From assembly GCA_903904885.1 (NCBI GenBank), contig CAIVED010000044.1, forward strand, positions 5,579 to 69,578: a stretch of 64,000 nt of DNA, given 5' to 3'. The notes below the pieces were generated by a model, which was not told the origin of the DNA, searched no databases, and saw nothing but the letters and a program-made list of their open reading frames with translations. Each line of letters starts with the position of its first letter. Position 1 is the first letter of the stretch. Positions 4,651 through 50,690 of the stretch are shown here, piece by piece. The position numbers and the translations under genes are program-made. Origin of the DNA: an uncultured archaeon (GTDB lineage Archaea > Nanobdellota > Nanobdellia > Woesearchaeales > CAIVOO01).

Positions 4651-7068
4651 ATGGCAGAAAGAATCATACCCAGACTGATTGAAGAGGAGATGAAAAAGTC
4701 CTACATAGACTATGCCATGTCAGTCATTGTCGGAAGGGCTTTGCCGGACATCAGGGACGGCCTGAAGCCGGTCCATAGGCGGGTCCTTTACACCATGCTT
4801 GAGCTCGGTTTGGCCTCAAATAAGCCATTCAAGAAGTGCGCCAGGGTTGTCGGAGACTGCCTTGGTAAGTATCATCCTCATGGCGATTTGGCTGTCTATG
4901 ACACTCTGGTAAGAATGGCCCAGACCTTCTCATTGCGATATATCCTGGTTGACGGCCAGGGCAATTTTGGCTCGGTTGACGGCGATTCTGCAGCAGCCAT
5001 GAGGTACACAGAATGCCGCATGTCCAAGGTTGCAGAGGCGATTCTCCAGGACATTGACAAGGAAACAGTTGATTTCCAGCCGAATTTTGACGCTTCGCTA
5101 AAGGAACCGATTGTCCTTCCTTCAAAGATTCCAAACCTGCTGGTAAATGGCAGCGCGGGAATTGCTGTTGGCATGGCAACAAACATCCCTCCGCACAATA
5201 TGACTGAAATCTGCGATGCCACAATTTTCCAGATTGACAATCCTGAATGCGTAATTTCAGAGCTTATGCAATTTGTAAAAGGCCCTGATTTCCCCACAGC
5301 GGGAACAATTGTCGGCAGATCAGGGATAATTGATGCCTACACCACAGGCCGAGGCAAGGTTCTTGTGCGCGCAAAATCAGAGATTATTGAGGAAAAGGGC
5401 AGGCAGAAAATAATTGTCACAGAAATTCCCTACCAGGTTAACAAGTCAATGCTGATTGAGGAGATTGCAGACCTTGTGAGGGATAAGAAAATAATCGGCA
5501 TATCTGACATCAGGGACGAGTCTGACAAAAAGGGAATGACCATTGTTATTGAACTGAAAAAAGATGCCAATGCCCAGGTTGTCCTTAACCAATTATACAG
5601 CCACACAAGGATGCAGCAGACATTCGGAATAATAATGCTGGTTCTGGTGAACAATGAGCCAAAGGTCCTGAATCTCCATGAGATGATTCACTATTTCATT
5701 CTCCACAGGAAAGAGGTTGTCACAAGAAGAACTCAGTTTGAGCTGAGAAAGGCAGAGGAGAGGGCCCATGTTTTGGAGGGATTAATCATAGCGCTGAATC
5801 ACATTGATGAGATTGTAAAGAAAATAAAGGCATCAAAGGATGCTGCTGTTGCAACAAATATGCTTGTTGCCGACTACAAGCTGACGGAAATCCAGGCCAA
5901 GGCAATCCTTGACATGAAGCTGCAGAGGCTTGCGGCGCTGGAGCAGGAGAAAATCAGGGCAGAGCACAGGGATTTGATGAAGCTGATTGCAGAACTGAAG
6001 GAGATTCTCGCTTCAGAAAAAAGAATTTTGGGAATAATCAAGGATGAGCTGAACGAGATAAAAAAGGCCTTTGGCGATGCAAGGAAAACAGAAATAATTG
6101 ATGCCGAGGGCGAGGAGATTTCCCAGGAGCAGCTGATTAAGCCGGAGGATGTTGCTGTCACAATTTCACATTCAGGCTACATAAAAAGGACAACCCTTGA
6201 CACCTACAAGCAGCAGGGGCGCGGCGGAAAGGGCGTTGTTGCCGCTGAAACAAAGGAAGGGGATTTTGTTGAGCATGTTTTTGTTGCTAATACGCATTCC
6301 TACATCCTGATGTTCACGGACAGCGGCAAGGTGCACTGGCTGAAGGTCTATGAAATCCCCGAGGCATCAAGATATGCAAAGGGCAAGGCCATAGTCAACA
6401 TTGTCCAGCTTGACCAGGGAGAAAATGTAAACGCATTTGTTCCTGTGAAGGAATTTGATGACAGCCATTTTGTTTTCATGGCAACAAAAAAGGGAACCGT
6501 GAAAAAAACAAATCTATCAGAATACTCAAGGCCGCGAAAGGGCGGCATAATCGCAGTTACGCTTGAAGAGGGCGATAATCTTATCGGGGTTGAGCTGACT
6601 TCCGGAAAGGACCAGATTATGCTTGCTTCAAAGGAAGGCAATGCCGTAAGGTTTGAGGAAAATGATGTGAGGGCCTGCGGCAGGTCTGCAATGGGTGTCA
6701 GGGGAATCAAGCTGAAGGAAAGCGATGAGGTTGTCGGAATGGTCATTGCAGATGATTCAAAGCAATTGCTGACAATAACTGAAAACGGCTACGGCAAAAG
6801 GACAGAGGCCGGCGAATACCGCCTGATTGGAAGGGGCGGTTCAGGAGTAATAAACATACAGTGCTCGGACAGGAACGGCAATGTTGTTTCAATAAGCTCT
6901 GTTACCGATGATGACGGCATTGTTGTCATAAGCAAAAGCGGGGTCATGATAAGGATTCTTGCGAAGGATATCTCCCTGATTGGCAGAAATACTCAGGGGG
7001 TCAGGATAATGAAGCTTGACGAAGGGGACAAGGTTGTTGCAGCGGCAAAGGTTGTCCACGAGGAATGA
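4651..7068 (+). CDS. gyrA: DNA gyrase subunit A.
   Basis: [21 protein letters not shown] near the N-terminus (active-site Tyr region) and GyrA C-terminal beta-pinwheel repeats. 805 aa, no intein. Confidence 0.9.
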
Positions 7069-9809: not shown

Positions 9810-10120
9810 GTGTAGGGCAGCATAAGCCGCCTTCTGTAAGGCTCCACATTGCTATGGACAGCCATTGCCGGCATTCAACTAAGCGTCTCAATGGACTTGC
9901 ACAAGCCAGGGCTCGCCGTTTCATCGTTTCTCTTGGAGACGTCAGCGGGTTAACTCAGTTTTGTCGCCAAAACCTTCGCGCGCATCATCCCATTCCAAAA
10001 GCCGTGCCGTTTCTGAGCGGTTGCCATCCATTTCTGGATATTGCTTTCACAATTGGCCACCGATAGTGGGCGGACTTTCCTCAGCCGATTAAGGCCGACA
10101 GCCAGCTGCTGCTCCTACAC
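9810..10120 (-). ncRNA. rnpB: RNase P RNA (archaeal type A-like).
   Basis: Minus strand reads 5'-GUGUAGGAGCAGC...GGCUGAGGAAAGUCCGCCC (CR-I/P4 5' strand)...UUACAGAAGGCGGCUUAUGCUGCCCUACAC-3' (CR-V ACAGAAnnCGGCUUA). P1 pairs 5' GUGUAGG(A)GCAGC with 3' GCUGCCCUACAC. Minus-strand BRE/TATA at 10143-10150, ~25 nt upstream of the 5' end. Confidence 0.8.
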
Positions 10121-17804: not shown

Positions 17805-17905
17805 GCGGAGGTGGCAGAGCCTGGCCAAATGCGCAAGGTTGAGGAAGAAAACTTCAAACGCCTTGTCCCTTAGTGGGTGCGAGGGTTCAAATCCCTTCCT
17901 CCGCA
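17805..17905 (+). tRNA. tRNA-Leu, putative anticodon GAG, class II (long variable arm), with a ~15-nt intron in the anticodon loop. No encoded CCA.
   Basis: Acceptor GCGGAGG/CCUCCGC with discriminator A. T-arm GAGGGUUCAAAUCCCUU. Anticodon stem CAAGG/CCUUG flanks UUGAGGA plus ~15 extra nt. The two overlapping track ORFs here are spurious. Confidence 0.65.
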
Positions 17906-19600: not shown

Positions 19601-22600
19601 ATGGACTTCAAATCTATCGAAAAGAAATGGCAGAAGAGTTGGGCAGATGCCAAAGTGTTCAAGGCAAGGGAAGATCCGAAGAAAAAGAAGTATTACTGCC
19701 TTGAGATGTTTCCATACCCTTCTGCGTCTGGTTTGCACATGGGGCACGCTTTCAATTACACAATTGGGGATATTTATTCAAGGTTCAAGCGAATGAACGG
19801 CTTCAATGTCCTTTATCCTATGGGCTATGATTCTTTCGGGTTGCCTGCGGAAAATGCGGCAATCAAGGCAAACTCGCATCCAAGAAAATTCACAAATGAG
19901 GCAATAAAGAATTTCATAAGGCAGCAGAAGGAGCTTGGCCTTAGCTATGACTGGGACAGGATTCTTTCATCATGCGAGCCGGAATATTACAAATGGAATC
20001 AGTTTTTTTTCCTTAAATTCTGGGAAAAGGGGCTTGTTTACAGGAAGAAAGCCCCTGTCAACTGGTGCCCAAAATGCAACACAGTTCTTGCGAATGAGCA
20101 GGTTCACAACGGCAAATGCTGGAGGCATCCTGACACAGATGTTGAAATCAAGCAGCTGGAGCAGTGGCTGATCAAGACAACTGCCTATGCTGATGAATTG
20201 CTTGAGGATTTGGAAAAAATCCACTGGCCTGAAAGAATCAAGATAATGCAGAAGAACTGGATTGGAAAATCTCATGGCACAGAAATAAAATTCAAAATCA
20301 ACGGAGAAGATTGGCCAATCTTCACAACGCGCCCGGACACAATTTACGGAGTCACGTTCATGGTTGTTTCTGCACAGCATCTGAGATTGATGGAGCTGGT
20401 TACAAAGGAGCAGAAGAAGGAAGTTGAAGCTTTCCTTAAAAAAATCAAGTCAACAAGCGAGAAAGATATCGAGGAATTGGAAAAGGAAGGCGCTTTCACC
20501 GGCAGTTACGCAATCAACCCAGTAACAAACCAGAAAATCCCAGTCTATGCCGGCAATTTTGTTGTAGCAGAATACGGCGCAGGGATGGTAATGGCTGTCC
20601 CTTCCCACGACCAGAGGGATTTTGAGTTTGCAAAGAAGTACAAGATTCCAATGAAACAGGTTATTGCTCCTGTTTTTGTAACAACCGACGGAAAAGATGC
20701 TGTTAGGGAAGACAAGAAAACTGAAGAGCGAGATTCAATATTTGCCATTGTTAAACACTGGGAAGAAGATAAATATTTTTGTCTGGACTGGAAAAATTTC
20801 AAATGGAAGTCCTTTGTCATAGGGGGGGTTGATAAGGGGGAAAAGGCAGAAGATGCTGCGATTAGGGAAGTTAAGGAAGAAACAGGATATTATGACATTA
20901 AAAAAATTACTGAGATGGGATTTGAGAACCATGGCAACTATTACGCTGAGCATAAGGGCGTAAACAGGTATGCAAGATTTAGGAATTTTTTAGTTGAGTT
21001 AAAATCAGATAAGCGAGAAAAGTTAGAAGAAGAACATACGAAAAATCATGAGGGAATGTGGATAGACAAAGATAAAGTTGCCAATTTTATTAACTTGTCA
21101 AATAATAAGTATATTTGGGATAGTTATATTAAAGGAGAAAGAGCATTTACAGAAGAAGGTATTCTTGTAAATTCCGGCGAATTCAATGGGATGAGAAATA
21201 CTGATGCCATTGAAGATATAACAAAATTCCTTGAAAAAAAGAAACTAGGCAAAAAAGTTGTTCAGTACAAACTGAGAGACTGGCTTATTTCAAGGCAGAG
21301 ATACTGGGGAACTCCGATTCCTGCAATATACTGCGACAAATGCGGTGTTGTCCCTGTTCCTGAGAAAGATTTGCCTGTTATTCTGCCTGAAGATGTCCAA
21401 TTCGGTGAGGGAAATCCTCTTGCAACAAACAAGGAGTTTGTTAATGTAAAATGCCCTAAATGCGGTGGTCCTGCCAGAAGAGAAACTGATACCATGGACA
21501 CATTCATGGATTCTTCATGGTATTTCCTGAGATTCTGCGACAATTTGAACAACAAAGAGCCATTTTCAAAGGAAAGTGCAAAATACTGGATGCCAGTTGA
21601 CCAGTATATTGGAGGGGCGGAGCATGCATGCATGCATCTTATTTACGCAAGATTTTTTGTAAAGGCATTAAGGGACATGGGCTACTTCAAGTTTGATGAG
21701 CCGTTTACAAACCTATTCAATCAGGGAATGCTTCATGGCGAAGACGGGGCAGTAATGTCAAAATCACGGGGGAATACGGTTCTCCCCGAAACTGTCTCTG
21801 AAAAATATGGAATTGACACAGCAAGATTCTTCCTTGTTTCAATAGCTTCTCCTGACAAAGATTTGAACTGGAGCGATGCTGGAGTGGAAGGAAGCCTGAG
21901 GTTCATCAATAGGGTAATAAGTTATTATGAAACTGTTAAAGTTGGAAAATCAAGCAAGAGAATTGAAAGCAAGCTGAACAAAGCGATTAAGGAGATAACA
22001 AAAGAGATTGAGAATTTCAATTACAATATTGCGATAATCCACATCAGGCAGCTGTTTGAATCGTTTGAAGAAGAGGCCAGCAAGGATACTCTTGAAAAGT
22101 TTTTGAAGCTTATTCATCCCATTTGCCCACACATCACGGAGGAATTGTGGGAGAAACTGGGAAACAAGCCGTTTATTACAATCTCTTCATGGCCAAAGTA
22201 CGATGAAAGCAAGATTGACGAGAAAGCAGAGCAGGAAGAGGAAATAGGCAAGGAGATAGTTTATGACATAAAGAGAGTTCTCGAGTTTGCAAAGATAGAC
22301 AAGCCGAAGAAAGTCACATTGATAATATCAGACAAGTGGAAATATAAATTCTATGAGAAATTTAAATCCGAGTTTGAGAAAACAAGGGAATTCAAGCCGA
22401 TTATGGAGGCTTTGCTGAAGGATGCAGATTTGAAAGCCCACGGCCAGGACATCCAGAAGTGGATTCCTAATTTATTAAAGAATCCGGGCAGGATTCCTGT
22501 AATTATATTTGACCAGAAAACAGAGAAAGAGATATTTTCCAAATTAACCGCCCAGATAAAGAAAGAGTTGGGAGCTGATTCGGTTGAAGTCGTTCTTGCA

Positions 22601-22666
22601 GAAGATTCCAAAGAACCCAAGGCAAAGAATGCGATGCCAAGCAAGCCGGCGATTGTGGTACAATAA
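19601..22666 (+). CDS. leuS: Leucyl-tRNA synthetase, bacterial-type architecture, carrying an in-frame Nudix-hydrolase domain insertion (~nt 20675-21151).
   Basis: HMGH class I motif (PSASGLHMGHAFNY), SHDQRDFEFAKKYKIP, LPVILPEDV, RETDTMDTFMDSSWYF, YIGGAEHACMHLIYARFF, VMSKSRGN (KMSKS). Between KQVIAPV and EEGILVNSGEFNG about 160 aa are inserted, containing GGVDKGEKAEDAAIREVKEETGY, a perfect Nudix box (Gx5Ex7REUxEExGU). Confidence 0.9.
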   Translation: MDFKSIEKKWQKSWADAKVFKAREDPKKKKYYCLEMFPYPSASGLHMGHAFNYTIGDIYSRFKRMNGFNVLYPMGYDSFGLPAENAAIKANSHPRKFTNEAIKNFIRQQKELGLSYDWDRILSSCEPEYYKWNQFFFLKFWEKGLVYRKKAPVNWCPKCNTVLANEQVHNGKCWRHPDTDVEIKQLEQWLIKTTAYADELLEDLEKIHWPERIKIMQKNWIGKSHGTEIKFKINGEDWPIFTTRPDTIYGVTFMVVSAQHLRLMELVTKEQKKEVEAFLKKIKSTSEKDIEELEKEGAFTGSYAINPVTNQKIPVYAGNFVVAEYGAGMVMAVPSHDQRDFEFAKKYKIPMKQVIAPVFVTTDGKDAVREDKKTEERDSIFAIVKHWEEDKYFCLDWKNFKWKSFVIGGVDKGEKAEDAAIREVKEETGYYDIKKITEMGFENHGNYYAEHKGVNRYARFRNFLVELKSDKREKLEEEHTKNHEGMWIDKDKVANFINLSNNKYIWDSYIKGERAFTEEGILVNSGEFNGMRNTDAIEDITKFLEKKKLGKKVVQYKLRDWLISRQRYWGTPIPAIYCDKCGVVPVPEKDLPVILPEDVQFGEGNPLATNKEFVNVKCPKCGGPARRETDTMDTFMDSSWYFLRFCDNLNNKEPFSKESAKYWMPVDQYIGGAEHACMHLIYARFFVKALRDMGYFKFDEPFTNLFNQGMLHGEDGAVMSKSRGNTVLPETVSEKYGIDTARFFLVSIASPDKDLNWSDAGVEGSLRFINRVISYYETVKVGKSSKRIESKLNKAIKEITKEIENFNYNIAIIHIRQLFESFEEEASKDTLEKFLKLIHPICPHITEELWEKLGNKPFITISSWPKYDESKIDEKAEQEEEIGKEIVYDIKRVLEFAKIDKPKKVTLIISDKWKYKFYEKFKSEFEKTREFKPIMEALLKDADLKAHGQDIQKWIPNLLKNPGRIPVIIFDQKTEKEIFSKLTAQIKKELGADSVEVVLAEDSKEPKAKNAMPSKPAIVVQ

Positions 22667-25647: not shown

Positions 25648-27804
25648 TTAACTCTCCTTCCCATCAGTTTTAACTTCCTTAGGGTATATAAATTTATAAT
25701 CTTCAGGGATTTGACTCACAAATGCTGATTCATTACCATTTTCCGACATTAAGAATAGCTTTTTTTTGGCACGTGTCATGGCAACATAAAACAGTCTTCT
25801 TTCTTCCTCTTCTTTGTCCTCCACAGGTATCTCCATAATTACTCTCTTTATTTCCTTGTCAGCGTAAATATTTGGAAAACCATACATGCCACTTTTTAGT
25901 CCTAATACAAAAACATATCTTGATTCTGTACCTTTAGACCAGTGGATAGTTCTTATAGGAATCTTGAAATCCATTTTTGCAAAAGTTTTTCTATACGGTA
26001 AAGTAATTCTTGAGCTTCTAGCAAGTATTAGAAAATCAGATTGCTTTAGATCTGGGTTTTCTGTCATTAACTTTCTAATTTTACGAACAACATATTCTGC
26101 AGCCTGGAAATCATTCTTTGCATTTATCTGCATTACCTTTGACCTATCTGGCTCATTCTCCTGGCTACATCTTATGTTTTTCTTATGAATCTTTTTACTC
26201 AAATGAATAAAATAACTTGAAGCATCAACAATGTTCTTAGTTGATCTATAGTTTATAGGTAAAACTATTTTTTCACAATTACTAAAATCTCTTTCAAAAT
26301 TGAGTATATAATCAACATCAGAACCTCTCCATCCATAAATGCTTTGCCAATCATCGCCAACAACAAAAAGAGAAGTATTATCATCAATTAACAACTTTAA
26401 TAATTCCACTTCTCCATAGCTAACATCTTGGTATTCATCAACTAAAAGATATTTTATCTTATTCTTATAATATTCTCTTCGGGAAGGATTGTTTTTTAAT
26501 AAATTTACTGCATCTTTAATTAAATCATTGAAGTCTTTTTTCCCGAAGTCTTTAGACTCAAGATATTCCTCATATTTTGCCATAACAGGAATCAAAACAT
26601 TGTAAAACCATACAACTTTTTCTTTTACTTCGCTCTTAAGTCTGATCTTTACATCATTAATTTCAAGCAATCTTGATTTAATTAGATTGATGATTTCTAT
26701 TAATTCTTCAATAAATTTTTCATATGCTTTTTTATACTCTTTTGGTAAATTGAACATATCCAGAAAATTTTCTTCTTTTAGTTTATTTTCATTTAAACCT
26801 TCAAATTCATTTCGTAGTCTGGTCTGAAGCTTTTGTAAATCAAACATTTCATTTTCTTCTATGGCGATAAGATTCTTATGATGTTTTTTGTATTGCTCTT
26901 CTTTGTCTTTACGTATTTTAAGATAATCTGCTTTGTTTATATCATTGAATTCTTGTGTTTGATCATTAATCCCCCAGTGTTCAAGGTAAATATCTTCATT
27001 TATTGTAAAGTCAGGTTTAAATGGAAAATCTGCCCAAGTCACTGGTTGTTCATATTTCCATCTAACACCCATGAACGTTAAAAAATTAGCAATATCTCTC
27101 TCAGATTTTGACCTTACTGGCACGCCTTCCTTAGTTAGATATCTTTTTTGTCCAAATGTGCTTTTCTCATTTATCTCAATTTTCTCTCTCCAGTTTTCAG
27201 AATCTAAAACTTTCTCTAGAGAATTATTTATAATGTAAAGATACATACTTTCCATAATCTCTTCATTCTCGCTAAAACTAGCAACTATCTTTTCAATTAT
27301 TTCCCTTTGTTTGTTATCATCTACAATATCAAATTGTTCGTTCTGTTTTAGGATTGACAAACAAAAAGAATGAAATGTCCTTACATTTTTTTTAAGATTT
27401 ACTTCTGAAATATTGATTGCCGGAGCAATACGCTCAGCCATCTCTTTTGCAGCCTCACGTGTGAAAGTAACTGCAAGTATATCATCTTTGCTTACCCCTT
27501 TATTTCTGACTAGATGTATGAATCGCTTGGTTAATACTTTAGTTTTGCCACTGCCTGCCCCAGCGAGAACTAAAATTCTTTTATGGTCAGAAATTACTGC
27601 ACGCTTTTGTTCAAAGTTGTCTCCAAAATCCTTTAAAAATTCGGAGTACTTCTCAATTTCCTCCGTTTCTTTTTCTATTTGACTTTTTAGTTTTGGCTTT
27701 GTAGAACTATTGTTGGGGGTTGTTTTAGGATGTGATTTGTTTATCTCTTTTTTCTTTTTTACTAAATCACTAAAAAATTTAACTACCTTCCTGAACTGAT
27801 CCAT
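25648..27804 (-). CDS. UvrD/Rep/PcrA-family SF1 DNA helicase with an internal restriction-endonuclease-like (DUF559/Vsr-like) module.
   Basis: Motif I LVLAGAGSGKT, Ia VTFTREAA, II LLVDEYQD, III VVGDDWQSIYGWRG, IV NYRS, VI VAMTRAKKKL. Between Ia and II: ERDIANFLTFMGVRWKYEQPVTWADFPFKPDFTINEDIYLEHWG. Confidence 0.75.
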   Translation of the reverse strand: MDQFRKVVKFFSDLVKKKKEINKSHPKTTPNNSSTKPKLKSQIEKETEEIEKYSEFLKDFGDNFEQKRAVISDHKRILVLAGAGSGKTKVLTKRFIHLVRNKGVSKDDILAVTFTREAAKEMAERIAPAINISEVNLKKNVRTFHSFCLSILKQNEQFDIVDDNKQREIIEKIVASFSENEEIMESMYLYIINNSLEKVLDSENWREKIEINEKSTFGQKRYLTKEGVPVRSKSERDIANFLTFMGVRWKYEQPVTWADFPFKPDFTINEDIYLEHWGINDQTQEFNDINKADYLKIRKDKEEQYKKHHKNLIAIEENEMFDLQKLQTRLRNEFEGLNENKLKEENFLDMFNLPKEYKKAYEKFIEELIEIINLIKSRLLEINDVKIRLKSEVKEKVVWFYNVLIPVMAKYEEYLESKDFGKKDFNDLIKDAVNLLKNNPSRREYYKNKIKYLLVDEYQDVSYGEVELLKLLIDDNTSLFVVGDDWQSIYGWRGSDVDYILNFERDFSNCEKIVLPINYRSTKNIVDASSYFIHLSKKIHKKNIRCSQENEPDRSKVMQINAKNDFQAAEYVVRKIRKLMTENPDLKQSDFLILARSSRITLPYRKTFAKMDFKIPIRTIHWSKGTESRYVFVLGLKSGMYGFPNIYADKEIKRVIMEIPVEDKEEEERRLFYVAMTRAKKKLFLMSENGNESAFVSQIPEDYKFIYPKEVKTDGKES

Positions 27805-27825: not shown

Positions 27826-28095
27826 AGCGGCGAGCCCTGCGAATCCGAATAAGCCGCAACTTAACAGTTACCTCCGGCTTTCCTCGATTCCGCGACCCTG
27901 CAAGCATTGCAAACTGCAGTTAAGGCTGCTGCATTCCTGCCCTGACCTGATTCCCACAACCGCAATCCTGCAGGACAGAATGTCACTGTACAGCCAAAGA
28001 CTGGTAAGCCGCAACCTACCCTCGTCCGCAGTATAGCTTCACTTAAAGCCCGTTAGTGATTACAGCGTAGGGCTGGCACGCCAGCATAGCCCGCC
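27826..28095 (-). ncRNA. ffs: Signal recognition particle RNA (7S/SRP RNA).
   Basis: Minus strand contains AUCAGGUCAGGGCAGGAAUGCAGCAGCC, matching the universally conserved domain IV/helix 8 (cf. 4.5S CAGGUCAGGUCCGGAAGGAAGCAGCC). 5' GGCGGGC pairs with 3' GCUCGCC. TATA at 28118-28125 on the minus strand ~25 nt upstream. T-rich 3' flank. Confidence 0.6.
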
Positions 28096-28118
28096 ATGGA
28101 GAAACCAGCGATAGTGGT

Positions 28119-48623: not shown

Positions 48624-50690
48624 ATGGCCTATGAATTAATTATCACAGAGAAGCCCAAAAGCGCCCTTAAGATAGCCCAGGCGCTCGACGACAAGATTGG
48701 CAAGGATGCCATAAACGGTGTTCCTTTTTACAAACTGAAATACAAGGGGAAGGAAATTGTCATAACATCCGCAGTTGGCCATTTGTACAGCCTGGCTGAA
48801 AAAACCTCAAGCAAGTGGGCCTATCCTGTGTTTGACATCGAGTGGAAAGAGGGCAGCGAAGTAAAAAAAGAAAGCTCCCATGTTGCAAAATACATAAATG
48901 CAATAAAAAAACTGTCGAAGGACGCGAATTCTTTCACAGTCGCAACAGATTATGACATTGAAGGGGAAGTTATCGGGCTGAATGTGGTCCGCTATGCATG
49001 CAAGCAGAAGGATGCCGCAAGGATGAAGTTCTCAACATTGACAAAGCCGGATTTAATCAAGGCCTATGAAAACAAGTCAAAAAAGCTTGACTGGGGAATG
49101 GCCCTGGCAGGAGAAACGAGGCATGAGCTGGACTGGTATTATGGCATCAACATTTCAAGGGCGCTTACCCATGCGATTAAGACAACAGGAATGTTCAAGA
49201 TTCTGAGTTCAGGAAGGGTCCAGGGCCCTGCGCTGAAAATTGTTGTTGACAAGGAAAAGGAAATCATGAAATTCAAGCCAGAACCATATTGGCAGATAGA
49301 GCTTCTTGGAAATGTTTCCGGCGCATTGATTGACGCATGGCATATTGCGGACAGGTTCTTTGACAAGAAAAAAGCAGATGCAGTGATGGAGAAAACCAAA
49401 AACCAGAAGGCAAAAATAAGCGATGTTGACAGAAGGAGATTCAACCAGGATGCGCCGAATCCGTTTGATTTGACAACCCTGCAGACAGAGGCCTACAGGT
49501 GCTTCAAAACCAGCCCTAAGAACACGCTTGCAATTGCCCAGAGCCTTTACACAGAAGGTTTTATTTCTTACCCGAGAACAAGCTCCCAGGTTTTGCCAAA
49601 GGAAATCGGATATGATAAAATCCTGGATGATCTTGGGGTGCAGAAAATTTACGCAAAGCTTACTTCACAATTATTAAAAAAGGGCAAGCTTGAGCCGAAC
49701 AACGGCACAAAAACAGACCCTGCCCATCCGGCAATTTATCCCACAGGAATCGAGCCGAAAAATCTCGATGAGCGGGAAGCAAAGGTGTATGACTTGATTG
49801 TCAAAAGGTTCCTTGCCACATTCGCTGATATCGCAGTAAGGGAAACGCTGAAGATTGAGATTGACTGCAATGGGGAAAAATTTGTTGCAAAGGGCACGGT
49901 CACAATTGAAAAGGGCTGGCATATTTTTTACGAGCCCTACACTGATTTCAAGGATGAGGAACTGCCTAATGTGAAAAAAGGCGAAGAGGTAAAGGTTGTC
50001 GAGATAAAAATGCATGACAAGGAAACCCAGCCGCCAAGAAGATATACTCCTGCCTCAATAATCAAAGAGCTGGAAAAAAGAAATCTTGGCACAAAGGCCA
50101 CAAGGGCAAATATTATTGACACTCTTTATGATAGGGGCTATGTCAGCGGGGAAAATCTCCAGGCCACTGAACTTGGAATAAAAACCGTTGAGAGCCTTGA
50201 GCAGTTCTGCCCGGAGATTGTTGACGTTGAGCTGACCAGGCACTTTGAAGAGGAGATGGATGAAATCCAGGAAGGGAAGAAAAAGCCCCAGGAGATTCTT
50301 GATGAGGCAAAGAAAGTCCTAACAAAAATACTTGAGGAAATAAAAAAGAAGGAAGGCCAGATTGGCGAGAAACTGCGGGAGGCCTTCAAGGAAACCACAA
50401 GGAAAGCCAACATTCTTGGGAAATGCCCTGCCTGCAAGGAAGGCAATTTAAGGATAATTGTTTCAAGAGCATCCGGCAAGAGGTTCATTGCCTGTGACAA
50501 ATATCCGGAGTGCAAAACCACCTTCGGAATCCCCCAGGGCGGGGCGATAAAAGAAGTCAAGGAGCTGTGCAAGGACTGCGGTTATCCGATGATTCTTGTT
50601 TTGACAAAAGGAAAGAGGCCGTGGAAATTATGCATGAACCCTAATTGTCCGTCTAAACAACAAATGATGAATGCGAGTGTGGAGATATAA
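48624..50690 (+). CDS. topA: Type IA DNA topoisomerase (TopA/Topo III-like) with C-terminal zinc ribbons.
   Basis: Toprim (LIITEKPKSALKIAQAL...VATDYDIEGEVIG), active-site region (GFISYPRTSSQVL), C-terminal CPACKEG...CDKYPECK...CKDCGYPM. No helicase domain, so this is not a reverse gyrase. Confidence 0.85.
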   Translation: MAYELIITEKPKSALKIAQALDDKIGKDAINGVPFYKLKYKGKEIVITSAVGHLYSLAEKTSSKWAYPVFDIEWKEGSEVKKESSHVAKYINAIKKLSKDANSFTVATDYDIEGEVIGLNVVRYACKQKDAARMKFSTLTKPDLIKAYENKSKKLDWGMALAGETRHELDWYYGINISRALTHAIKTTGMFKILSSGRVQGPALKIVVDKEKEIMKFKPEPYWQIELLGNVSGALIDAWHIADRFFDKKKADAVMEKTKNQKAKISDVDRRRFNQDAPNPFDLTTLQTEAYRCFKTSPKNTLAIAQSLYTEGFISYPRTSSQVLPKEIGYDKILDDLGVQKIYAKLTSQLLKKGKLEPNNGTKTDPAHPAIYPTGIEPKNLDEREAKVYDLIVKRFLATFADIAVRETLKIEIDCNGEKFVAKGTVTIEKGWHIFYEPYTDFKDEELPNVKKGEEVKVVEIKMHDKETQPPRRYTPASIIKELEKRNLGTKATRANIIDTLYDRGYVSGENLQATELGIKTVESLEQFCPEIVDVELTRHFEEEMDEIQEGKKKPQEILDEAKKVLTKILEEIKKKEGQIGEKLREAFKETTRKANILGKCPACKEGNLRIIVSRASGKRFIACDKYPECKTTFGIPQGGAIKEVKELCKDCGYPMILVLTKGKRPWKLCMNPNCPSKQQMMNASVEI

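Follow-up and report, generated by a model that had tools for sequence, protein, structure and literature searches.

A Nudix hydrolase module nested in an archaeal leucyl-tRNA synthetase and its relatives in other aminoacyl-tRNA synthetases

The leucyl-tRNA synthetase (LeuRS) of an uncultured archaeon of the Woesearchaeales contains a Nudix hydrolase domain nested in CP1, the editing domain of the enzyme. The gene lies in a stretch of 64,000 nucleotides (contig CAIVED010000044.1 of assembly GCA_903904885.1), which is analysed here as a whole and referred to as the window. It is complete (19601..22666, plus strand), an open reading frame (ORF) encoding 1021 amino acids, and combines a bacterial-type core with a module of 155 residues (residues 359-513; 20675..21139, plus strand). 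We regard it as virtually certain that this is a Nudix domain nested in a functional LeuRS. The best overall explanation, to which we give a probability of about 0.45, is that of a bifunctional LeuRS whose mobile Nudix cassette acts on a nucleotide compound linked to aminoacyl-tRNA synthetases (aaRS). In this view the module would fold on its own, have the catalytic competence of a Nudix pyrophosphohydrolase and be borne by a surface loop of CP1, and its display on an otherwise complete LeuRS would make the protein bifunctional.

The nested module and its host enzyme

The boundaries of the module are given by alignment to insert-free orthologues such as P0223. These have an 11-residue loop, DEYKLDANKMA, where the window protein has 155 residues, and the module is therefore residues 359-513. 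An earlier note, made from the sequence of the window alone, had described an in-frame insertion at 20675-21151, which in the window protein falls in the loop between KQVIAP and G.LVNSGEFNG. The orthologue alignment and the continuous ORF bear out the insertion and its start, whereas the end had been placed four codons too far and lies at 21139. The Pfam NUDIX family (PF00293) matches residues 398-493 with 44.2 bits in the full protein and 46.4 bits in the excised segment, against a gathering score of 21.1 (E-values of 2.5e-11 to 5e-12), and the LeuRS editing-domain model (PF13603) is broken into two stretches by the insert.

The module contains a Nudix box, GGVDKGEKAEDAAIREVKEETGY (residues 408-430; 20822..20890, plus strand), which had already been recognised as an exact fit and which matches the 23-residue consensus GX5EX7REUXEEXGU at G408, E414, R422, E423, V424, E426, E427, G429 and Y430. 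The final U position is a tyrosine, as it is in 93% of the clade of related modules described below, and the metal-binding glutamates are E423, E426 and E427. The predicted structure of the insert is the alpha/beta/alpha Nudix fold that the note had expected. Box, profile and predicted fold all agree in placing the module in the Nudix superfamily.

Inteins are another class of in-frame insertion, and the module was considered as one and rejected, in agreement with the note. Its junctions read QVIAP|VFVTT and YIKGE|RAFTEE, with neither a Cys, Ser or Thr at the N-terminal junction (V359) nor a His-Asn pair at the C-terminal one (E513|R514). The Pfam Intein_splicing model reaches 13.8 bits against a cut-off of 35.8, and the predicted fold is Nudix rather than Hint.

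The host enzyme is a LeuRS of the bacterial type, as had been proposed. In an NCBIfam profile search it scores 937.7 bits with the equivalog model TIGR00396 (leuS_bact; cut-off 548.4), and the nearest solved structure is Thermus thermophilus LeuRS (1H3N, 764 bits). The HIGH motif is present as HMGH (residues 46-49, nt 19736-19747) and the KMSKS motif as VMSKS (residues 718-722, nt 21752-21766), and CP1 follows the ZN1 module, which is its position in bacterial-type enzymes. The stretch of CP1 that precedes the Nudix module (residues 218-358; 20252..20674, plus strand) corresponds to a PF13603 match over residues 218-361, profile positions 1-146. It includes the T-rich editing motif TTRPDT (residues 242-247, nt 20324-20341) and the HDxRD motif HDQRD (residues 336-340, nt 20606-20620), the editing residues of which are invariant in an alignment of 80 sequences (A2). 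The stretch that follows the module (residues 514-556; approximately 21140..21268, plus strand), defined by the second PF13603 match and by alignment to insert-free orthologues, leads back into the catalytic core.

Outside the insert, the last ~148 residues of the protein (residues 874-1021; 22220..22663, plus strand) form an archaeal-type C-terminal domain. Their sole match in the PDB is Pyrococcus horikoshii LeuRS (1WZ2, residues 832-966, E-value 2.2e-12), and the NCBIfam models for archaeal LeuRS align to residues 657-1021. Judged from these matches, the enzyme is a hybrid of a bacterial-type catalytic core and CP1 with an archaeal-type C-terminal domain. The C-terminal domain of archaeal LeuRS reads the variable arm of tRNALeu, and the hybrid would thus be a bacterial-type enzyme suited to archaeal tRNALeu.

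Residue conservation was computed over 272 modules. The three metal-binding glutamates are 99% conserved, as is G408, and G429 is conserved in 98%. Outside the box R377 (nt 20729-20731) is found in 97% of the modules and W487 (nt 21059-21061) in 100%, and a motif specific to the clade, K452-G-V-N455-R456 (20954..20968, plus strand), is conserved at K452 (99%), N455 (94%) and R456 (92%). R377, K452, N455, R456 and W487 are candidate contacts to the substrate or its phosphates. In about 10% of the modules the Arg of REUXEE is replaced or the first Glu of the box has become Gln; the three glutamates are kept. Comparison with L002, the nearest available relative of the window module, gives a proportion of nonsynonymous differences (pN) of 0.078 and of synonymous differences (pS) of 0.77; we report pN/pS, which is about 0.1, instead of dN/dS because synonymous sites are saturated at this distance. 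The nonsynonymous divergence (dN) of the module, 0.083, is half of that of the LeuRS core (0.179). Catalytic glutamates that are at least 99% conserved, together with this strong purifying selection, argue that the module is probably an active enzyme. As for the host enzymes, an HD..D pattern was found in about 130 of 145 module-bearing LeuRS with a regular expression search that, in the same run, missed HIGH or KMSKS in many sequences; the expression used for the T-rich editing motif was too strict to interpret.

Lateral gain and spread of the module

The closest relatives of the window LeuRS do not share its module. We built a tree of the LeuRS core from the 120 closest LeuRS, 57 of which carry the module. 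The window LeuRS falls within a clade whose 14 other members are all without the module, and its core is 89, 87 and 84% identical to those of the three nearest insert-free orthologues. A survey of related archaea for the same insert, which the earlier note had suggested, therefore does not reveal a lineage trait but the contrary: none of the 14 nearest orthologues has it, and at least 12 gain or loss events are required on the tree. The closest insert-free orthologue, L001, lies in a contig that is syntenic with the window (L18e-L13-S9-RpoN-LeuRS...peptidase U32), and the two genes therefore occupy the same locus.

The phylogenies of module and core are decoupled. Across 1596 pairs there is no correlation between the identity of the modules and that of the cores (r=0.02). 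Modules with 85, 81 and 80% identity to the window module sit in LeuRS with cores that are 73, 65 and 62% identical to the window core, the first of these being P0226. A codon alignment locates the exchanged tract. The window gene is of the insert-free L001 type as far as codon ~350 and from codon ~521 onwards, and in between it is of the type of L002, the donor. The tract (codons ~351-520, ~510 nt; 20651..21160, plus strand) includes the module and its donor-type flanks, KQVIAP and RAFTEEG. The GC content at third codon positions (GC3) is 0.335 in the module and 0.474 in the remaining gene. The donor-like codons and the lower GC3 together indicate that the cassette was gained, as a recent lateral acquisition, by allelic recombination. 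A tract of ~510 nt from a donor of lower GC content would have replaced the ancestral loop, and the simplest reading would be an allelic replacement of nt ~20651-21160 through homologous recombination in conserved CP1 sequence. More generally, the cassette may be gained, lost and exchanged between LeuRS alleles through recombination in these conserved CP1 flanks, and it is very likely that the module is a laterally mobile accessory cassette.

The arrangement, which the earlier note had called distinctive, is not confined to this genome: many LeuRS of DPANN archaea, Candidate Phyla Radiation (CPR) bacteria and Bacillota contain a nested domain of the same Nudix clade. The insert was used as a query against 1.84 billion representative proteins, which gave 422 relatives and, at E<1e-10, 233 representative clusters. 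Segment mapping of the long relatives identifies most of them as full-length bacterial-type LeuRS with the module in the same loop. Among 348 modules that were classified, 177 are in LeuRS at the site seen in the window, 21 are in LeuRS at a site before CP1, 99 are fused to a decayed CP1 remnant of roughly 100 residues and 29 are free-standing. Some LeuRS, such as P0072, carry two or three copies. By nearest neighbour the context classes are interspersed, and the module has therefore relocated repeatedly. The clade is also present in a class II synthetase, an archaeal-type prolyl-tRNA synthetase (ProRS), where it occupies residues 398-515 of P0166, flanked by the anticodon-binding domain on one side and the C-terminal ProRS domain on the other; this architecture is confirmed by P0341 and is rare, comprising two clusters.

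Most of the best 80 of 137 confirmed loci in a scan of GTDB species genomes likewise carry the module in a LeuRS of full length, and they belong to Woesearchaeota, Pacearchaeota, Paceibacterota, Moraniibacteriota, Saccharibacteria, Berkelbacteria, Clostridia and Bacilli. The loci are spread over many independent assemblies, among them a CPR chromosome that is complete and contigs as long as ~985 kb. The hosts of the clade are DPANN archaea, CPR bacteria and uncultured Bacillota. The module thus appears to represent a distinct Nudix clade that lives almost only in aaRS (LeuRS at two or more sites, rarely ProRS) and their derivatives.

The fusions to a CP1 remnant are proteins of ~280 amino acids from gut Clostridia and Lachnospirales, in which the Nudix domain sits at the homologous loop and the editing motifs are mostly lost. 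In the family represented by P0038, which is recorded on 420 contigs (loci L083-L086, 6001-6855; also L006-L029), TTRPDT has become TITNEE and HDQRD has become HIQEH. In one lineage of Lachnospirales the P0038 gene apparently lies in an island with a serine recombinase, and this island interrupts the gene of a Zip transporter. An association with serine recombinases was considered as a general trait of the remnant form and rejected, since among 13 loci it is confined to this lineage. There the P0038 gene is preceded by an ORF of 291 amino acids that is weakly CYTH-like (20.6 bits, under the cut-off). A UvrD helicase gene adjoins the detached P0038 gene in Lachnospirales and another occurs in the window, which is probably a coincidence.

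Five CPR loci (L037, L040, L043, L044 and L062; Saccharibacteria-like) encode LeuRS with the Nudix module, then an ORF whose N-terminal sequence looks nusB-like on inspection by eye, and then a separate Nudix protein ~1 kb downstream. These downstream ORFs were considered as detached modules. They score 30-38 bits with a hidden Markov model (HMM) of the module, where true members reach 150-218, and they are located after nusB. This makes them a different Nudix protein, with a W-T-I-P-K-G-H box context and MutT1 as the closest family (40 bits). In a further LeuRS, P0284 (970 amino acids, the sister of P0240 in the core tree), 107 residues are left in the module columns and the NUDIX score is lost, which looks like a module decaying through internal deletion, a snapshot of loss.

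Other hydrolases are nested in relatives of the window LeuRS, with or without the Nudix module. Ser_hydrolase (alpha/beta hydrolase) domains are found near the start of CP1 or in the region of the leucine-specific domain (P0229 243-389, P0303 242-397, P0274 259-447 and P0082 601-766), a Ham1/ITPase domain precedes the anticodon-binding domain in P0085 (984-1167, 197 bits) and P0170 contains a HAD_2 phosphatase (654-808). By appearance, LeuRS serves as a general scaffold into which hydrolases can insert.

Substrate and alternative explanations

The module is weakly nearest to the group of Nudix enzymes that contains the diadenosine polyphosphate (ApnA) hydrolases, RppH and the decapping enzymes. 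RppH (NF001936 and related NCBIfam models) is the best-matching family for 27 of 30 modules, always far under the cut-off (~30 bits against ~118; 31 against 118 for the window module), and the MutT 8-oxo-dGTPase models TIGR00586 and NF008044 reach 14-15 bits against cut-offs of 98 and 148. A profile search of the PDB ranks the mRNA-decapping Nudix protein AvrM14 first, followed by Lupinus Ap4A hydrolase, 2AZW, NudB, Dcp2 and NUDT12. The nearest solved or curated relatives include the Lupinus and Aquifex Ap4A hydrolases, the diadenosine polyphosphatase MutT1/Rv2985, the Ap6A hydrolase Ndx1, RppH, AvrM14, Dcp2 and NUDT12; nucleoside triphosphatases (NTPases) of the MutT/NudI type are also among the structural neighbours. 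ApnA hydrolases are marked by a conserved X-loop tyrosine downstream of the Nudix box, the Dunn/Bessman marker, which stacks on the adenine (PMC5389931). Y446 and Y447 sit 16-17 residues past the box of the window module, by spacing where this tyrosine, Y87 in NUDT2, would be; the clade consensus at the two positions is F (~80%) followed by Y (~60%).

aaRS are the main producers of dinucleoside tetraphosphates (Ap4N), and the asymmetric Ap4N hydrolases are the Nudix enzymes RppH/NudH, MutT1 and NUDT2, which also decap Np4-capped RNA (PMC7705103). We therefore propose that the module would hydrolyse a nucleoside-diphosphate-linked compound that is made or met at the active sites of aaRS. The best candidates would be dinucleoside polyphosphates (ApnN), among them Ap4A and Ap3A, for which the aminoacyl-adenylate is the precursor used by aaRS; an RNA 5' end that is polyphosphorylated or capped would come next. 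Either way, a clearing hydrolase would be tethered to the producing synthetase. The presence of the clade in both class I and class II synthetases fits a chemistry common to all aaRS. We tentatively rank ApnN or an RNA 5' polyphosphate first among possible substrates. The window encodes an archaeal RNase P RNA, so that tRNA 5' ends are presumably processed normally, which bears against a tRNA with a 5'-triphosphate as the substrate in this organism.

The earlier note had proposed a role in Ap4A hydrolysis, which is plausible, and also proofreading, the weaker half of its functional proposal because the LeuRS editing motifs are intact and the hydrolysis of aminoacyl-adenylates is not known as a Nudix reaction. 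The bond in an aminoacyl-adenylate is an acyl-phosphate, not a diphosphate. Proofreading of aminoacyl-adenylates by the module is unlikely.

Several observations weigh against a dedicated hydrolase for products of the synthetase. LeuRS is a weak producer of Ap4A compared with LysRS or PheRS, and no curated NCBIfam threshold that would name a substrate is reached by the module, RppH being the best. Where the five CPR loci encode a separate MutT1-like Nudix protein near LeuRS, an ApnA function of the module might be redundant. The module is also dispensable, as its absence from close relatives shows. The nested Ham1/ITPase, HAD and Ser_hydrolase domains in LeuRS of the same lineages point to generic house-cleaning passengers over an Ap4A-specific device.

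Such a passenger would be a general sanitiser of the nucleotide pool (MutT- or ITPase-like) that sits in a permissive loop of LeuRS, uncoupled from aminoacylation, its nesting ensuring that, in tiny genomes poor in regulators, it is expressed constitutively and protected from being lost. This is a possible alternative that we nevertheless doubt. The hosts are symbionts with reduced genomes, their LeuRS accept other hydrolases at several sites, the clade has free-standing members and the structural neighbours include NTPases; Galperin et al. are said to have listed Nudix and Ham1 in 2006 as two classical superfamilies of house-cleaning nucleoside triphosphate pyrophosphatases. However, the clade is almost never found outside aaRS or fragments derived from them, it entered LeuRS at several sites and ProRS independently, and the free-standing versions of gut bacteria have kept a decayed piece of CP1 over a long divergence. 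Nor would a core sanitiser be expected to be dispensable and laterally exchanged, and the MutT equivalog models remain far under their cut-offs. The patchy, laterally transferred distribution, with presence differing between near-identical orthologues and with decoupled phylogenies, could be read instead as a sign of conflict. The cassette would then protect LeuRS or tRNALeu against a nucleotide-type inhibitor or toxin, for instance a diphosphate group added to the tRNA end or an antibiotic that mimics the adenylate. CP1, to which the module is attached, binds the tRNA 3' end, the P0038 gene is apparently inside a recombinase island in Lachnospirales and P0038 weakly matches the PADLOC candidate PDC-S07 (29 bits). 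That match is at the level of generic Nudix domains, however, and the island is a feature of a single lineage. A tblastn search with the module found no match in phage and plasmid collections, the search of IMG/VR gave nothing beyond matches at the level of the Nudix box and BFVD gave generic viral Nudix folds only. No toxin or immunity gene is evident as a neighbour in the window, where some of the ORFs were annotated, not systematically. We consider conflict improbable.

It is less probable still that the module is a non-catalytic appendage, a Nudix fold serving as a ligand sensor or as an additional surface for binding tRNA or protein, like NrtR and CFIm25. Non-enzymatic Nudix proteins do exist (PMC5389931; PMC7705103), and replacements of the REUXEE Arg or the first box Glu in a tenth of the modules would be in keeping with such a role. 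Against it stand the near-invariant metal-binding glutamates, the canonical box of the window module and the purifying selection on it. The least probable explanation, hardly credible to us, is an artefact, either of assembly (a metagenome chimera or a frameshift at a join) or in the sense that the insert is an intein after all. A single contig is the known source of the window protein and the composition of the module deviates from that of the remaining gene, but the same architecture recurs at the same site in many independent assemblies, both junctions are in frame, the recipient and donor types (L001 and L002) share no identity of k-mer length at the junctions and intein motifs are absent. 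A bifunctional LeuRS with a mobile Nudix cassette is thus the explanation that we prefer.

A full-text search of the literature, which covers subscription journals only in small part, found no published description of a Nudix domain in LeuRS or in any aaRS. The labels that NCBI gives to the module-bearing proteins are "class I tRNA ligase family protein" and "NUDIX domain-containing protein". Nudix hydrolases and LeuRS are each a textbook family, and it is their widespread, mobile nested combination that appears to be undescribed. The broadest picture that we would draw is a speculative one. In it, the aaRS of ultra-small symbionts (mainly LeuRS, occasionally ProRS) would host mobile in-frame hydrolase cassettes (Nudix, Ham1/ITPase, HAD and Ser_hydrolase), and allelic recombination would have carried these across the divide between archaea and bacteria. 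The role of the Nudix cassette would be that of a tethered hydrolase dedicated to dinucleoside polyphosphates made by aaRS or to Np4-capped RNA, and the fusion of CP1 remnant and Nudix in gut Clostridia would be its detached version, acting in trans.

If the tethered module does act on Ap4N or caps, it would provide built-in control of alarmone or cap production at the source. An action on Ap4N-type products would make the protein a natural fusion of producer and destroyer, and the question whether dinucleoside polyphosphates made by aaRS are waste or signal would become directly testable. Natural pairs of orthologues with and without the module, up to 89% identical, make the comparison experimentally tractable. 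Whatever its substrate, the module is a case of an entire enzyme domain that passes, as a cassette, from one allele of an essential gene to another and that several sites tolerate; DPANN archaea, CPR bacteria and gut Firmicutes all have it. In practical terms, the insert reduces HMM coverage enough to degrade the automatic annotation of LeuRS in the host genomes.

Other features of the window and comparison with known systems

An archaeal RNase P RNA (9814-10116, minus strand, 163 bits) and an archaeal SRP RNA (27828-28096, minus strand, 121 bits) are encoded in the window, and the host is therefore archaeal, as had been assumed. Directly upstream of the L18e-L13-S9 genes Rfam identifies a tRNA (17805-17905, plus strand, 43.6 bits) that spans 101 nt and matches the full model (1-71); ARAGORN finds no tRNA anywhere in the window. 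This is probably an intron-containing archaeal tRNA. The same archaeal window also holds genes for a bacterial-type DNA gyrase subunit A, a type IA topoisomerase and a UvrD-family helicase (4651-7068, 48624-50690 and 25648-27804).

The window LeuRS is co-linear in its catalytic core with the bacterial enzymes of T. thermophilus (1H3N and 2BYT) and Escherichia coli (4AQ7) and shares with them the position of CP1, HIGH, KMSKS and the editing motifs. These enzymes have a short loop where the window protein has its 155-residue module (11 residues in the insert-free DPANN relatives), and the archaeal-type C-terminal domain is a feature of the window enzyme. A similar combination of an essential class I synthetase with an enzyme domain that modifies small molecules is known from isoleucyl-tRNA synthetase (IleRS) with an N-acetyltransferase domain (NF040702, ileS_w_GNAT), the model for which is among the NCBIfam matches to the window LeuRS. 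In that case, however, the synthetase, the accessory fold and the chemistry are different. Inteins resemble the module in that they, too, interrupt essential genes in frame, occur patchily and spread laterally from allele to allele, but the module has neither splicing residues nor a Hint fold, and it is kept in the mature protein as a folded enzyme.

The module shares its fold and a complete GX5EX7REUXEEXGU box with the Nudix ApnA hydrolases and RNA 5'-end pyrophosphohydrolases, which include RppH/NudH/IalA, the Aquifex and Lupinus enzymes, MutT1/Rv2985 and Ndx1 as well as AvrM14, Dcp2 and NUDT12. The substrates of these enzymes are products of aaRS side reactions (PMC7705103). The known enzymes are free-standing, whereas the module sits inside another enzyme, is far under every curated cut-off and has conserved residues of its own (R377, K452-x2-N455-R456 and W487). 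The MutT/nudix protein 2AZW of Enterococcus faecalis is also free-standing and is 17% identical to the module; as an uncharacterised structural-genomics target it carries no functional information.

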